64,000 nucleotides of DNA from an uncultured delta proteobacterium (GCA_963848295.1 CAWKDB010000011.1:288001-352000), one strand, 5' to 3'. Positions 41,647 to 50,933 are shown, counted from the stretch's first letter. Notes: generated by a model from the sequence alone, not told the origin. Made by a program: numbers and translations.

Positions 41647-43009
<1,363 letters not shown>

Positions 43010-43011
43010 AG

Positions 43012-43230
43012 CTATACCTTTCTCGACGAGCTTCGCGCGCTCGCCGCGTCGCACACGTTGCGGATCCAGTCCGAGAGTCCGAGCCCTGCCGCCTTCGCAG
43101 CTCGCTCGTACGCCGCGCGTTCGCGGTCGGTCGCGCGTAGCCCGATGATCGCGGTTGGACGGTCCGCGCGCAGCGGTCGGCCGATTCGCGGAGCCTTGCT
43201 CGACTTCGTTCGCGCTCGCACTGTGACCAT
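43012..43230 (-). CDS. Small ribbon-helix-helix-like DNA-binding protein
   Basis: IGLRATDRERAAYERAAKAAGLGLSDWIR. Confidence 0.7.
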   Translation of the reverse strand: MVTVRARTKSSKAPRIGRPLRADRPTAIIGLRATDRERAAYERAAKAAGLGLSDWIRNVCDAASARSSSRKV

Positions 43231-43269
43231 CTTGCTGTTTCCGTTTAACGAATGCAAGTGCCCTCCGAA

Positions 43270-43857
43270 TTACCAAACGCGCTCGCGTAGTTTCGGCTCA
43301 GGCCCGTACCGCGTCGGCTCGTGCAGATCCGATCTCGCCACGCCGAGCCGCGCACCGGGCAACGCTCGTTTGACGCGCCGAAACGCCTTCGCCTCGATTT
43401 GGCGGATCCTTTCGCGAGTCACGTTGAGGCGCTCTCCGACCTCTTCGAGCGTGACCGCACCGCGATCGGCGATATCGAGCGAACACGAGCCCCATCGCTG
43501 AATTTGCTCGGCGAGCGCATCGGCGGCGGCTTCGAGATCGGCTTCCGATGGATCGGCCGGCACGTCGTGCGTGCCGATGGTGAGACCACCACGGAACCCG
43601 ACGTCGACGGAGAACATGTGGTGACGACACGAAATGAATGGGCATCCCGAGGCGGGACGCTTGCCGTGCAGAGGATCGCAGTCACCACGCGTTCGTGGTC
43701 GGTGCGGCTGCGCGTCACTCGTGCTCGTAAAGTCGGCGACCGGATCTGTGTTCGCGAGCACCGCGAGAGCTGCGACACGCTTCATCGCGAGCGCCTCAGC
43801 TTCACTAGCGCCGTGGCACTCGTCATCGTCCGTGCTCGCGTAGGACGTCGTCGACAA
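43270..43857 (-). CDS. Sigma70 region-4-type HTH protein with Cys/His motif
   Basis: RPRTRGDC..CPFISCRHH..CSLDIADRGAVTLEEVGERLNVTRERIRQIE; start uncertain. Confidence 0.75.
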   Translation of the reverse strand: MSTTSYASTDDDECHGASEAEALAMKRVAALAVLANTDPVADFTSTSDAQPHRPRTRGDCDPLHGKRPASGCPFISCRHHMFSVDVGFRGGLTIGTHDVPADPSEADLEAAADALAEQIQRWGSCSLDIADRGAVTLEEVGERLNVTRERIRQIEAKAFRRVKRALPGARLGVARSDLHEPTRYGPEPKLRERVW

Positions 43858-45565: not shown

Positions 45566-47116
45566 TCACGGTGTCACTGCCTTCCAATTGCCGCCGTGGA
45601 TCCGCGTGATCCGCCCCGCGGTCTCTAGCCGAATAGCGGCAGCGTCGACCCTGGCGGGACGGACCCCAGTACCTCGCTTGTCCTTCACGCGGCCGATCGC
45701 GGCGTCGCGAAGATCGCGGCTACCGATCCCGATGTCGGGCGACGCCGCCACGACCGCGAGCACGATCGGATCGAGAAGCGCCGACTCCTGCGATGCGCGC
45801 GCGTTCTGGAGCGAGCCCGCGCGCTCGTGCCGGACGTACTTGCGGCCTTCGTCGTCGGCGCCAAAGCGGCGCACGATCACGAACGGCTCGACGTCAATCT
45901 CGTGGTTCGACTCGACGCTAACGACGACTTGGTGCTCGCTCGGACCACGCTCGATGCCGACCGCGTGACGCGTTGTGGCCCCGATCAAGCTCGATCCGCG
46001 AGCCCGCTGAAGCACGCCGGTGCCGGTCGCCGGCGCGTCGCCCGTCCCCTTGCGGAAGTGGTGCACGATTGGGATTGCCGTCGACGTTTCGAGCGAAAGA
46101 TCGCGCCACCGATTCATAATCGGCGCCATCCGCTCGACGCTGTTCTCGTCGGCGTTGTGGACCGTCGACAGCGAGTCGATCGCGCAGATGTCGTAGTCGC
46201 CGAGCTGCGACTTGAGCCGGGCAACGTGGCTCGGATCGTCGAGGTACAGGGCGCTCGTCGCGTCGATGTCGAGATGGTCGGCGAGTTCCCATAGCTCGAT
46301 GGTCGCGCCGCGGGCGAGCTGATGTAGCCGTCGCCGGGTCGTGCGGACCGAGTCTTCGCGCAGAAAGAGCAACACGCGACAACGCCGGTTCAGCCTCACG
46401 CCACACCACTCCTTGCGGCCGGCCGCGAGGTGCAGCATGAGATCCTCGACGAGGAACGTCTTCCCGACCTTCGGATCGCCGATAAACAAGCTCGGTTCGC
46501 CGCGGACGATCAGACCGTGCGCCTCGAACACGTCAGCCGGATTGTCGTCGGGCTCGTCGCCCACAAACTCGATGAAGGGTCGGCCGTAGCGCGGCGCCCC
46601 GTCGCTGCGTTTCAAGACCTCGCGGTAGCGTTCGTTGAACTGCTCGATCTGTCGAATCGCGTCGGCGCTGTACTCGTCCGGATCGTCGTCGCCGCGAGCA
46701 GCACAGCGAGCGATCTGATCGAGGATGATCGACAACCCGCGCTTGTACGCGGCATCTCGAACGATCGCGACGTACGCGACGACGTTGTCCGCGGTCGGGA
46801 CGCGGAGCGCCAGTTCACCGAGGAACGCGATACCCCCGACCGCGTCGAGCTTGCCGGCCCTCTCGATCTCGGCTTCGAGCGTAACGACGTCGATCGGGGC
46901 GCCGGCCGCTTCGAGGTTCCGCATCCCAGCGAACACGATCCGGTGTTGCGGCGCGTAGAAATCGCTCGGCTCCAACTGTGGCAGCGACGCGAGCTGGGCG
47001 TTGTCGAGGATAACGCCGCCGAGGATCGATGCTTCGGCGTCGAGGTTGTGCGGCAGCGACGTCGCGATCGCGCGCACCGACTGAGCGCGGCCGTTGTTAT
47101 GTGCGATCGAATTCAT
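45566..47116 (-). CDS. DnaB N-terminal domain fused to AAA_25 (RepA-like RecA-fold) helicase
   Basis: PHNLDAEASILGGVIL, DFYAPQHRIVF, PIDVVTL, GGIAFLGEL (DnaB-N); GDPKVGKT, ED, IDSL, DEN, VHHFRK, RARGSS (AAA_25). Confidence 0.88.
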   Translation of the reverse strand: MNSIAHNNGRAQSVRAIATSLPHNLDAEASILGGVILDNAQLASLPQLEPSDFYAPQHRIVFAGMRNLEAAGAPIDVVTLEAEIERAGKLDAVGGIAFLGELALRVPTADNVVAYVAIVRDAAYKRGLSIILDQIARCAARGDDDPDEYSADAIRQIEQFNERYREVLKRSDGAPRYGRPFIEFVGDEPDDNPADVFEAHGLIVRGEPSLFIGDPKVGKTFLVEDLMLHLAAGRKEWCGVRLNRRCRVLLFLREDSVRTTRRRLHQLARGATIELWELADHLDIDATSALYLDDPSHVARLKSQLGDYDICAIDSLSTVHNADENSVERMAPIMNRWRDLSLETSTAIPIVHHFRKGTGDAPATGTGVLQRARGSSLIGATTRHAVGIERGPSEHQVVVSVESNHEIDVEPFVIVRRFGADDEGRKYVRHERAGSLQNARASQESALLDPIVLAVVAASPDIGIGSRDLRDAAIGRVKDKRGTGVRPARVDAAAIRLETAGRITRIHGGNWKAVTP

Positions 47117-47304: not shown

Positions 47305-47615
47305 CGGCCGCGACCCCGATTCGTCGGCGACGACAGCGGCTGCGCGCCGAGCAAGACTGCCTCGATCATCGAGACCCTTCCGAGCCAGCCGCGTCCGACC
47401 TTGCGAAGCGCGCCCGCACCGACCAGCGACGGAATGAGATCGGTGAGCCAGATCCGGCGCGTCGTACCGGGAACCGCTTCGACGAGCGTCGCGACGGTCC
47501 AGCGCCGCACGGGGTCACTCGGCGCCACTGTTGCCGCACGAGGTCCGCGCGATGTCACCGGCTCCGCACCAACCGGCGCGGTCGATTCGTCGACGACACG
47601 AAGCGGCGTGATCAT
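47301..47615 (-). CDS. Hypothetical protein
   Basis: ATGA overlaps on both sides within the operon. Confidence 0.5.
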   Translation of the reverse strand: MITPLRVVDESTAPVGAEPVTSRGPRAATVAPSDPVRRWTVATLVEAVPGTTRRIWLTDLIPSLVGAGALRKVGRGWLGRVSMIEAVLLGAQPLSSPTNRGRGR

Positions 47616-47938
47616 GACGCCCGCCGTGGATCGGGATCCGCCATCGAGTGACCGGCTATGTTGCGTACCGGCCGCGCAGCGCTGATCGGGATGATCGGCG
47701 TCGCATCAGGTTCGCGCTCGTCGCCGATGTGACGCCGCGCCATCCACGCTCGCAGCTCGGCGATCTTGAAGCGTACGAGTCTCGGACCGAGACGATAGTG
47801 CGGGATGGTGCCGCGCGACACCCAAGCGCGCACGGTCCCGACGCGTACACCGAGCAGCCGGGCCGCGCCTTCGTAGTCGATCGGTTCCGCCGTGATGTCG
47901 TCGTGCGATGGCGGCGTCGTCGTTCGGTGATCTCGCAT
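47612..47938 (-). CDS. Excisionase/AlpA-like HTH_17 DNA-binding protein
   Basis: DYEGAARLLGVRVGTVRAWVSRGTIPHYRLGPRLVRF..ELRAWM. Confidence 0.85.
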   Translation of the reverse strand: MRDHRTTTPPSHDDITAEPIDYEGAARLLGVRVGTVRAWVSRGTIPHYRLGPRLVRFKIAELRAWMARRHIGDEREPDATPIIPISAARPVRNIAGHSMADPDPRRAS

Positions 47939-49013: not shown

Positions 49014-49754
49014 ATGCCGGGCCCGTTGCTTCCGAAAGCGCCCATCGACGAGGTGGTGTTCGGCTTCATACTCAGCACGCCGCTCGGCCCCGATGCGGTG
49101 GACGCGGGTCGCTACTTCGCGGACCGCCGGGACCGGTTCACGAAGCATGAAATCAAAGAGCCGATCCTTTCGGAGCCGGGCTGGGTCGAATCACCGGGCC
49201 CGGTGCGCGTGTGGCTTTCGTCGGAGGACGAGAGTTGGCTTGTGCAGCTGCAACAGGACCGCTTCCACGCAAACTGGCGTCGGAGGGGCGAAGCCGTCTA
49301 CCCTGGTTTCACGCGCGCCGGCGGGGCAATGCATTTCGCTCTCGATGAATTCCGGCGTTTCCAGGATTTCTGCGAGCGACTACGTGGCGAACGACCGACG
49401 GTAGCGGCGATCGATGTGTCGAAGATCGACGTGCTGGTCCAGGCGCGCCACTGGGATGACCTCGCCGATGCACTGCACCTCGTCCCCAGCCTCCGTGCGA
49501 TCTCCGAGATTACAACCGCGCCGACACCGGTCATGTCGCTCGGCTACCAGGAGTCGCTCAACGGCATGACGGTTTCCGTCTCGATCATGCCTGCCAAAAC
49601 AAAGGCCCCACCGTCGGTGTCCGCGTTCAGGTTAGAATTTCGGGCGGCCCAACCCGCAGGCGACGACCTGGAGGCGCAGTTTGTGGCGATGAACGTTGTG
49701 CTGAACGAAGCGTTTGTGCGCGCCGTACCCAATCACGAGACGAGGTTCTCGTGA
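49014..49754 (+). CDS. TIGR04255-like family protein
   Basis: LPKAPIDEVVFGF, RVWLSSEDESWLVQLQQDRFHANWRR, YPGF. Confidence 0.8.
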   Translation: MPGPLLPKAPIDEVVFGFILSTPLGPDAVDAGRYFADRRDRFTKHEIKEPILSEPGWVESPGPVRVWLSSEDESWLVQLQQDRFHANWRRRGEAVYPGFTRAGGAMHFALDEFRRFQDFCERLRGERPTVAAIDVSKIDVLVQARHWDDLADALHLVPSLRAISEITTAPTPVMSLGYQESLNGMTVSVSIMPAKTKAPPSVSAFRLEFRAAQPAGDDLEAQFVAMNVVLNEAFVRAVPNHETRFS

Positions 49755-50254
49755 GCTTCGACGGGAGTTCCAGTTCGTCGACGGTGGACGATGTCGTTGA
49801 AGCGATTCCGATCGGCCGTCCGCGTTCGCCGATGGTTCGGCGGCGCGCGACGCAGAAGCAGGACGCGACCACGGGGGACGGCAATCTCCACCGTGGGACC
49901 GTAGATGCCGGCGAGGGGTCAGGACTCGACAGTGTCGAGATGACGGCGAAGCCGTTCGTCGTCGAAGGCGATCTGCGAGCGTTCGTTCGATGGGTCGAGC
50001 AACGCAAGCTGACCTTCATCGTCAACTACGTCGCTGAAATTCTTCGAGAGATTCTTCACTCGTCGGTCGTGACAGCCAGCCTCGATACAGAGCCCGACGA
50101 TCCCGAGGTAAGCCGGGTGATGCTCGTCGCTACGGTGCGCGTGGACGACGAGCAGGCGCTAGACCACCTGTTCGGCTTCACCGGTATGCCGTGGTGGCTG
50201 GGCATCGTTCGCTCGACGCGGAATGCAGTCGTAGTCGACATCCAACGCGGGTAG
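49751..50254 (+). CDS. Hypothetical protein, putative antitoxin partner of the HEPN gene
   Basis: GTGA overlap; low-complexity N-terminus; C-domain DPE..VMLV..EQALDHL..WWL..VVVDI. Confidence 0.6.
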   Translation: MSFDGSSSSSTVDDVVEAIPIGRPRSPMVRRRATQKQDATTGDGNLHRGTVDAGEGSGLDSVEMTAKPFVVEGDLRAFVRWVEQRKLTFIVNYVAEILREILHSSVVTASLDTEPDDPEVSRVMLVATVRVDDEQALDHLFGFTGMPWWLGIVRSTRNAVVVDIQRG

Positions 50255-50259
50255 CAGCC

Positions 50260-50655
50260 GTGAACGATTGGGCCGGCTTTCTCGCGCTTGCCAAGACACT
50301 CGCGCAAGCCCTTCCAGCGGAGGGCGCCAGCCTTCGTTCAGCGATCTCGCGCGCCTACTACTCGGCGTACAATGACGCGAGGCAATACCTTCGCTCGAAG
50401 GACTTGAACTACAACCTGTCGAGAAACGACTCACAGCACGAGAAGGTGTGGACCTGGTTCTCGTCTCAGTATGGGAGGGTGACCCAAGTCGCGACGCTCG
50501 GCGAGGCGCTGCGTAAGAAGCGGAACAACGCAGACTACGAATCAACGTTTCCGAATCTCAAGTACGAGGCAGGTGACAGCGTGCAGAAGGCCCAGCGGAT
50601 CCTCGTGCTGCTCGCCGACGCGCGCACGCCGCCTGTGCGTCCACCGTCGCGATAG
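50260..50655 (+). CDS. HEPN domain protein (putative RNase toxin)
   Basis: RSAISRAYYSAY, H, LRKKRNNADY. Confidence 0.85.
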   Translation: MNDWAGFLALAKTLAQALPAEGASLRSAISRAYYSAYNDARQYLRSKDLNYNLSRNDSQHEKVWTWFSSQYGRVTQVATLGEALRKKRNNADYESTFPNLKYEAGDSVQKAQRILVLLADARTPPVRPPSR

Positions 50656-50747
50656 CTTCGACATCGGTCCCTTGGCGCTCGGTTGGCAGGGTCCACCGAT
50701 CGCGCGCTCCTACGCGAAGCTATGAGGCGACCGCGGCCGACGATCCT

Positions 50748-50763
50748 GGGGTCCACTGGGGGT
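50748..50763 (+). promoter_or_regulatory. Putative integrase arm-type site (right)
   Basis: Identical 16-mer to 41779-41794. Confidence 0.7.
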
Positions 50764-50909
50764 ACAGCTGAACGTGCACGAAGCGAATCGAGCGATCGCG
50801 AGCGTTATCGATTGTCTCTATCGCTTCGCGTGAATCCTCGACGGAGAATCGTGGTTTTCGGGAGCTTCGTCCGCGATCTCGCTCGCTTGCTCGTCGACCG
50901 CTGAAACCC

Positions 50910-50933
50910 GTTCAAGTCCCGACGGGGTCACCA
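50910..50933 (+). repeat. att core, distal copy (displaced tRNA-Glu 3' end with CCA)
   Basis: GTTCAAGTCCCGACGGGGTCAC followed by CA. Confidence 0.93.

Follow-up and report, generated by a model that had tools for sequence, protein, structure and literature searches.

We found that a three-gene operon, borne as cargo by an island integrated at a tRNA gene, represents a cassette that recurs in three phyla. The operon lies in the window, by which we mean the whole 64,000-nucleotide stretch of DNA analysed, from an uncultured delta proteobacterium. It encodes a protein related to the TIGR04255 family (gene 1), a small protein with a Ser/Thr-rich N-terminal tail (gene 2) and a HEPN protein (gene 3), and the three genes are coupled. 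In other genomes, gene 1 stood before many unrelated gene pairs, the gene 2 N-termini were enriched in Ser and Thr, tail-less two-gene versions occurred and, in one locus, the pair had been swapped while the tail was kept. Judged from these comparisons, gene 1 and the tail of gene 2 together make up the constant part of the cassette and the HEPN pair is exchangeable cargo, a point that an earlier note on this DNA had missed. By our analysis, the cassette is real, conserved and different from the known toxin-antitoxin-chaperone (TAC) systems, by analogy with which its mechanism is read, and we infer an anti-phage function from its context. We put at slightly below even the likelihood that the cassette works like a TAC system in reversed order, with a chaperone that is not recognisably SecB.

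The 246-aa gene 1 (49014..49754, + strand) is followed by the 167-aa gene 2 (49751..50254, +), whose GTG start overlaps the gene 1 TGA stop as GTGA, while the 131-aa gene 3 (50260..50655, +) begins with a GTG placed 5 nt past the gene 2 TAG. The ORFs, the overlap and the gap described in the earlier note were all recovered, as was the low GC content that it had remarked on. The operon showed 62.5% GC, lower than both the genome (68.1%) and the island core (66.7%), and a value as low as that of the operon was reached by just 1.9% of 4731 equal-sized genome windows. The island spans 9.2 kb, from a tRNA-Glu gene that serves as integration site (41647..41719, +), the last 22 bp of which constitute the left att (41698-41719), to the right att (50910..50931, +), where 22 bp of the tRNA-Glu 3′ end are repeated exactly. 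The next nucleotides after this repeat are CA, completing CCA. The island core lies on the - strand and comprises a tyrosine integrase (41681..43276, -; PF00589, PF22022), a sigma70 region 4 HTH protein, a replication protein with DnaB N-terminal and AAA_25 domain matches (45566..47116, -) and an excisionase-like HTH_17 protein (47612..47938, -; TIGR01764 above cut-off). The trio is encoded on the opposite strand (+) and is separated from the distal att by ~255 nt, in agreement with the orientation and position first reported. A PADLOC scan of the window genes gave no full match to a defence system, as had been anticipated, and the best match was PDC-M05B (E=0.017). No match to a sigma-70 promoter or an intrinsic terminator was found and no RNA holder was listed.

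Several minor features of the island were also recorded. A 195-aa island protein encoded at 43270-43857 has a sigma70 region 4 domain at its C-terminus as well as Cys/His motifs. The called integrase ORF overlaps the 3′ end of the opposite-strand tRNA-Glu gene (41681-41719). The resident tRNA-Glu gene does not encode its CCA, and the distal att copy ends in CCA. An imperfect 26-nt repeat with a GGGGTCCACTGGGGGT core lies just inside both island ends (41772-41797 and 50741-50766); these repeats are possibly integrase arm sites.

Profile comparisons place gene 1 as a divergent relative of TIGR04255. Its own match to the family, at 23 bits (E=5.8e-5), falls under the 30-bit cut-off, yet 143 out of 150 aligned homologues matched TIGR04255 and homologues reached E=2e-17, which supports the family likeness proposed in the earlier note. 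Comparison of gene 1 with Pfam, PADLOC and PDB sequences gave no match at a meaningful level. At E<=0.001, its relatives formed 2368 clusters at 50% identity, and 32 out of 401 sampled genomes of one proteobacterial phylum contained TIGR04255 relatives. The close homologues of gene 1 were Kofleriaceae by source label. Its distribution was patchy (4 out of 138 genomes of the family, 14 out of 401 of the phylum and, for a second family in the class, 30 out of 301), a pattern that fits mobile cargo. Viral contigs yielded one gene 1 relative with the alignment used.

The AlphaFold2 model of gene 1 had a pLDDT of 95.8, and the predicted secondary structure consisted of two beta-alpha-beta-beta-beta-alpha halves, between which no internal repeat was detected at the sequence level. 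The best structural matches of this model were weak, McsB/guanido kinase leading the wide VIA search with Z 7.9, rmsd 4.9 and 183 aligned residues. Guanido kinases scored Z 7.7-7.9 overall, and the top VIA folds were ATP:guanido phosphotransferase and glutamine synthetase-like (Z 7.9, 7.8 and 7.7). These folds, taken with the Ser/Thr-rich composition of the gene 2 tails, would suit a gene 1 product that acts on the tail as an enzyme or as a modification reader (e.g. phosphorylation), thereby switching the antitoxin. We regard such an activity as quite improbable, given that the Z values stayed below 8 at 5-8% identity and that the RxExR-like pattern seen in the last strand within the gene 1 clade of the window does not hold across the wider family.

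AdoMetDC and TBP reached Z values of about 6 in the VIA search (TBP Z 6.0), and a viral structure library returned TBP-like proteins along with the unnamed viral protein A0A515MGR4 (TM 0.47/0.55). The recurrence of TBP and TBP-like proteins in both the Foldseek and the VIA matches (target TM-scores about 0.3-0.45), and the presence of conserved polar or basic residues (E13, R65, Q78, Q80, R83, N87 and R89) in or beside predicted strands, are consistent with another role, in which gene 1 would be a nucleic-acid sensor or transcriptional regulator with a TBP-like saddle that governs the toxin-antitoxin pair in some other way, and the gene 2 tail only a linker, degron or autoregulatory arm. The TBP-like matches are, however, weak (Foldseek rmsd 9-12; VIA Z 6 or less) and within the range of common arrangements, and we judge this role unlikely. 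Turning to the chaperone reading that we prefer, gene 1 did not match a SecB profile, whole or by halves, when a shallow 5-sequence SecB alignment was used, and SecB was absent from the Foldseek matches listed and from the 50 best hits of the wide VIA search, an absence that does not exclude a SecB fold.

The AlphaFold2 model of gene 2 agreed with the disordered-looking N-terminus and small alpha/beta domain that had been described. Residues 1-65 (49751..49945, +) were predicted to be disordered, with pLDDT<50 at residues 7-22, 30-36 and 38-65, while residues 70-166 were predicted to fold confidently as alpha-alpha-beta-beta-alpha-alpha-beta. Within the tail, S10-T11, T41 and L46 were nearly invariant. 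All 27 full-length gene 2 homologues carried 2-3 (S/A)-T-hydrophobic motifs in their first 70 aa and 0-1 in the remainder, the pattern having been picked after inspection of the alignment. The tail repeats read (S/A)-T-(L/I/V) and the only conserved aromatics were F3 and F69. The near-invariant residues and the motifs repeated in 27/27 homologues argue that the tail is not a random linker, and we propose that it represents a chaperone-addiction-like element.

Residues 66-167 of gene 2 (49946..50254, +) constitute a small alpha/beta 'DPE...WW' domain, the likely antitoxin, which shows an MNT-like topology without the catalytic motif. This core matched a profile of 21 proteins preceding related HEPNs (Prob 85.8, E=5.4e-6). 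The GSX10DXD motif was absent in 22/22 gene 2-type proteins and present in a true MNT recovered by the same search and used as control (L213), bearing out the earlier remark that gene 2 has no clear MNT motif. Likewise, gene 2 showed no profile match to the canonical MNT of L213. Its structural matches were middling (Z 5-6), with KH-II/OsmC-type folds tied with pol-beta NTase folds, including Pol X 3au2 (Z 5.5, rmsd 3.0, 75 aligned residues) and GrpB (Z 5.1).

The HEPN nature of gene 3, which the earlier note had recognised from an SRAYY..H..R-NNADY pattern, was supported through its relatives. Gene 3 alone gave no HEPN family match, and gene 3 together with 6 close relatives did not match PF05168. 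A profile of 7 gene 3 sequences retrieved the PDB entries 9xbd (E=0.0076) and 9xbc (E=0.036), both named 'HEPN domain-containing protein', and tblastn with gene 3 led to plasmid-borne proteins of Gloeothece and Thermus that are annotated as HEPN. The PF05168 cut-off was passed by two of the three tblastn homologues scanned (Thermus and Gloeothece; 27-33% identity). The invariant stretches of gene 3 include S30-R-A-Y-Y, H60 and R88-x2-A-D-Y93, and R31, Y33, Y34, H60, R88, D92 and Y93 were invariant in 8/8 aligned sequences. Neither RX4H nor RX4HXY is present in gene 3, which reads R88-N-N-A-D-Y93 instead. We therefore classify gene 3 as a probable class II-type (PF05168-like) HEPN and likely toxin, its toxicity being suggested by the cassette slot that it occupies, given that RX4H is missing. 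According to a 2020 report (PMC7641770), class II (PF05168) HEPNs lack the RNase motif and were biochemically unstudied at that time, so the 'HEPN RNase effector' of the earlier note is not established. The same features would accommodate a HEPN that is not a toxic RNase, in a cassette serving stress or regulation and unrelated to phage defence. We consider this very improbable, since other loci fill the gene 3 slot with PemK/MazF, HNH or PDC-M32B-like proteins and the seven residues listed above are invariant.

The trio was conserved across genomes. Thirteen metagenomic loci were examined, 9 of which have a gene 1 with 46-59% identity over its length, and the same gene 2 and HEPN followed in 8 of these 9. 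Among these 8 close trios, the HEPN gene is interrupted by the contig end in L002 and L007 and shortened in L010. The search was also run from the toxin side, yielding 3 new loci from 147 genomes, 4 out of 8 plasmid records and, from 573 genomes in three further phyla, 17 loci; 21 loci were left after L207, which is broken, L211, a large fusion, and L213, a true MNT, had been set aside. A TIGR04255 protein, a tailed gene 2 and a HEPN were found in this way on plasmid pTB1 of Thermus brockianus. The same trio was present in 4 out of 7 HEPN matches from 191 genomes of Chloroflexota, the phylum of genome G1216, the seed locus of which was labelled Anaerolineaceae. Conservation across the close loci, Thermus and the four Chloroflexota genomes, together with the toxin swaps, the tail-less cores and the position as island cargo, gives good support to the three-part anatomy behind the sensor/chaperone-antitoxin-toxin system put forward in the earlier note.

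We then compared the gene 2 N-terminus with the upstream gene in the 21 HEPN loci. Five of them had TIGR04255 upstream (by HMM or annotation), and all 5 carried gene 2 extensions of 51-86 aa. Another five were tail-less (9-19 aa) and none of these had TIGR04255; in one of them, L194, an unrelated 99-aa gene is located 54 nt upstream. In 8 loci, an extended gene 2 followed some other coupled gene (DUF6941 in 1, no family assignment in 7), and the remaining 3 presented other N-terminal fusions and no such upstream gene. With HMM-confirmed partners only, the association between tail and TIGR04255 was not significant (Fisher p=0.28); it reached p=0.003 once all coupled upstream genes were counted, 8 of them added by eye and the relatives not being independent. 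The strict result, and the finding of this gene 2 core with its HEPN as two-gene units in the 5 tail-less loci and the 3 with other fusions, could mean that genes 2 and 3 form an ordinary toxin-antitoxin pair, sufficient in itself, which stabilises the island, and that gene 1 is an accessory that accompanies such pairs and is dispensable for their control. We regard this as improbable on account of the gene 1-gene 2 coupling, which extends over 24 toxin clusters and would be unlikely for a passenger, as the gene 1-first survey below documents.

Three observations from the HEPN loci concern individual plasmids and upstream genes. In the Thermus brockianus pTB1 locus (L195:690-2400), the HEPN gene is unannotated, the annotated start of gene 2 lies ~39 codons late, and the trio sits between a VapC gene and cas6. 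On an Enterococcus faecium plasmid (L196:1177-2372), a DUF6941 gene fills the gene 1 slot and is followed by a gene 2-like protein with a tail and by a HEPN; DUF6941 is perhaps another guard family. Genes of 105-310 aa with no family assignment are coupled before an extended gene 2 and HEPN in L197:196-867, L200, L201, L208, L212, L190 and L192.

The survey of gene 1 neighbourhoods comprised 161 entries with a gene 1 of >=200 aa, including the window and L010, which was added by hand. Two coupled ORFs lay downstream of gene 1 in 144 out of 161 loci, one in 8 and none in 9, 4 of which end at the locus edge; L154, L155 and L164, at least, have no coupled gene 2. The median distance between gene 1 and gene 2 was -3 nt, and in 92% of 143 loci they lay within 6 nt. 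The cargo fell into 30 clusters of gene 2 C-termini and 24 clusters of gene 3, although the survey was clade-biased, with 80 loci being the best 80 of 295 from one scan, near-duplicates present and 73 toxins belonging to one cluster. Gene calls were automatic, on GC-rich DNA and without a shuffled control. Named partners included PemK/MazF (PF02452, E=1e-18), HNH (PF01844), HTH_3, HEAT and PDC-M32A/B-like proteins. Other cargo was labelled by eye as presumably 'ADP-ribosyltransferase-like' or 'papain-like', and clusters 1 and 6 as 'PemK-like'. Ser and Thr together made up 19.6% of gene 2 residues 2-51, as against 12.3% of the last 70 aa (n=146, p=1e-21); their share in gene 3 N-termini was 12.0%. 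A separate observation from this survey is a very large cassette group (L034-L113), consisting of TIGR04255, a 'WDSYG' domain protein and a small toxin-like protein, which is related to the PADLOC candidate PDC-M32 and spans Acidobacteriota, Planctomycetota, Nitrospirota and others.

A natural swap was identified in L009, whose gene 1 nests within the window's gene 1 clade in a FastTree tree. The gene 2 C-terminus and the toxin of this locus belong to the PDC-M32-like group and are unrelated to the window's pair, while its tail keeps three motifs in register with the HEPN-type tails (profile E=1.7e-5). With shuffle Z values of 9.7 and 9.3, two of its pairings outscored all others among 2780 cross-cargo pairs. 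This pattern, a single event, is what a tail matched to gene 1, and not to the toxin, would be expected to give. Across different-cargo pairs, tail similarity did not correlate with gene 1 identity (rho -0.01, p=0.58). A gene 1 acting as nucleic-acid sensor or regulator would leave unexplained both the tail kept with gene 1 in L009 and the tail-less gene 2 found without gene 1.

The known systems closest to our preferred reading are the TAC systems. As described in two reports (bioRxiv 10.1101/2024.02.24.581848; PMC11618068), the antitoxin of these systems carries a modular disordered tail and is unstable as long as the tail is not bound by a SecB-like chaperone encoded in the same system, for which phage proteins are competitors. 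The known chaperone-addiction tails are C-terminal and aromatic, according to the first report (bioRxiv 10.1101/2024.02.24.581848). Measured against HigBAC, MqsRAC and CmdTAC as presented there, the cassette is alike in having three genes, a long disordered antitoxin tail encoded beside the third gene, repeated short tail motifs, interchangeable toxin types and a location on mobile elements. It differs in that the chaperone candidate of the window is of TIGR04255 type (246 aa), with no SecB kinship detected, in that the gene order is reversed, and in that the tail lies at the N-terminus and is Ser/Thr-hydrophobic, instead of being C-terminal with aromatic anchors. Because tail polarity and chemistry differ and SecB kinship was undetected, we did not class the cassette as TAC. 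By analogy with TAC, the gene 1 protein, as tail-binding chaperone or sensor, would bind the disordered gene 2 tail and stabilise the antitoxin, and an unguarded tail would lead to aggregation or proteolysis of the antitoxin. Gene 2 would block the HEPN by binding and not by AMPylation, and the toxic gene 3 product would be held blocked until the guard is lost. A phage protein would act as the trigger by drawing the gene 1 guard away.

The cassette was also compared with other defence systems. With the class II HEPN/MNT pairs (PF05168/PF01909) and the type VII HepT/MntA pair described in PMC7641770, the operon has in common a HEPN of probable class II type that contains a conserved tyrosine and, immediately before it, a small alpha/beta protein of MNT-like topology. 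It differs in that gene 2 lacks GSX10DXD, gene 3 lacks RX4HXY, and a tail and a third gene are added; since both motifs are absent, it is not a type VII HepT/MntA pair. According to PMC13092281, DS-42 (PRO1) is a validated E. coli prophage defence system. As documented there and at locus L115, DS-42 shares with the window a coupled 238-aa protein and a 190-aa protein with a Ser/Thr-rich N-terminus, followed by an effector, which is an MBL hydrolase in DS-42 and a HEPN in the window. DS-42 protein 1 could not be tied to gene 1 or to TIGR04255 by HHalign, HMM or sequence comparisons, in which only 4 DS-42-type sequences were used. The upstream genes of L197 and L200 (215-232 aa) looked like DS-42 protein 1 by eye, but their score of 3.2 bits lay below the shuffled maximum of 15.4. 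PDC-M32, a two-gene PADLOC candidate, is related to the commonest TIGR04255 cargo pair, which matched the C-terminus of PDC-M32A in 4/4 cases tested and PDC-M32B in 3/9; in contrast, the window genes match neither, and two gene 1 relatives tested do not match PDC-M32A. With respect to the NCBIfam family TIGR04255, gene 1 is divergent and under cut-off, and NCBIfam gives no function for the family, for which one is proposed here. No named system matched the cassette, consistent with the earlier note, which had not recognised it as one.

A search of the literature (titles and abstract beginnings) returned nothing describing this cassette. TIGR04255 was named in no main text found, in a search that did not extend to subscription papers and bioRxiv supplements. 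No papers were found under IPR026349/CHP04255, which we take to be identifiers for TIGR04255. The paper on PDC-M32 in the literature searched concerned detection only; none was found for DUF6941, and the one found for DUF3467 was unrelated. The supplement of PMC13586616 contains no TIGR04255, PDC-M32 or DS-42. At least two TIGR04255 proteins are given as predicted novel defence genes in the DefensePredictor tables, where the family also appears as a neighbour feature (PMC13092281, Table file 5).

On a wider scale, TIGR04255 might be a second, SecB-independent family of phage-sensing addiction chaperones which, by means of a portable Ser/Thr tail at the N-terminus, would make triggerable defence systems out of six or more unrelated toxin-antitoxin pairs (HEPN, PemK/MazF, HNH, PDC-M32-like and others) in many phyla; we hold this to be possible, if somewhat doubtful. 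DS-42 and the cassettes headed by DUF6941 or by other genes without a family may follow the same plan. Should gene 1 prove to be a guard that binds the tail, the whole common TIGR04255 family would gain a function, chaperone addiction would have emerged on a second fold with the tail polarity reversed, the unannotated pairs downstream, dozens in number, would count as candidate defence toxins, and the cassette would constitute a new kind of tripwire against viruses. The locus is also a direct test case of whether class II HEPNs without the usual RNase motif are toxins, and the natural tail-less versions are ready controls.

Finally, two other arrangements were seen among relatives of gene 1. 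The upstream genes of other tailed gene 2 proteins showed no tie to TIGR04255 save in L138, where tandem TIGR04255-like genes are followed by a short Ser/Thr-tailed helical protein and the second gene matched the canonical TIGR04255 profile with Prob 70.9. P0164 (447 aa) carries a TIGR04255-like domain in frame with a tail and a HEAT-like domain, and represents either a natural fusion or an assembly frameshift.
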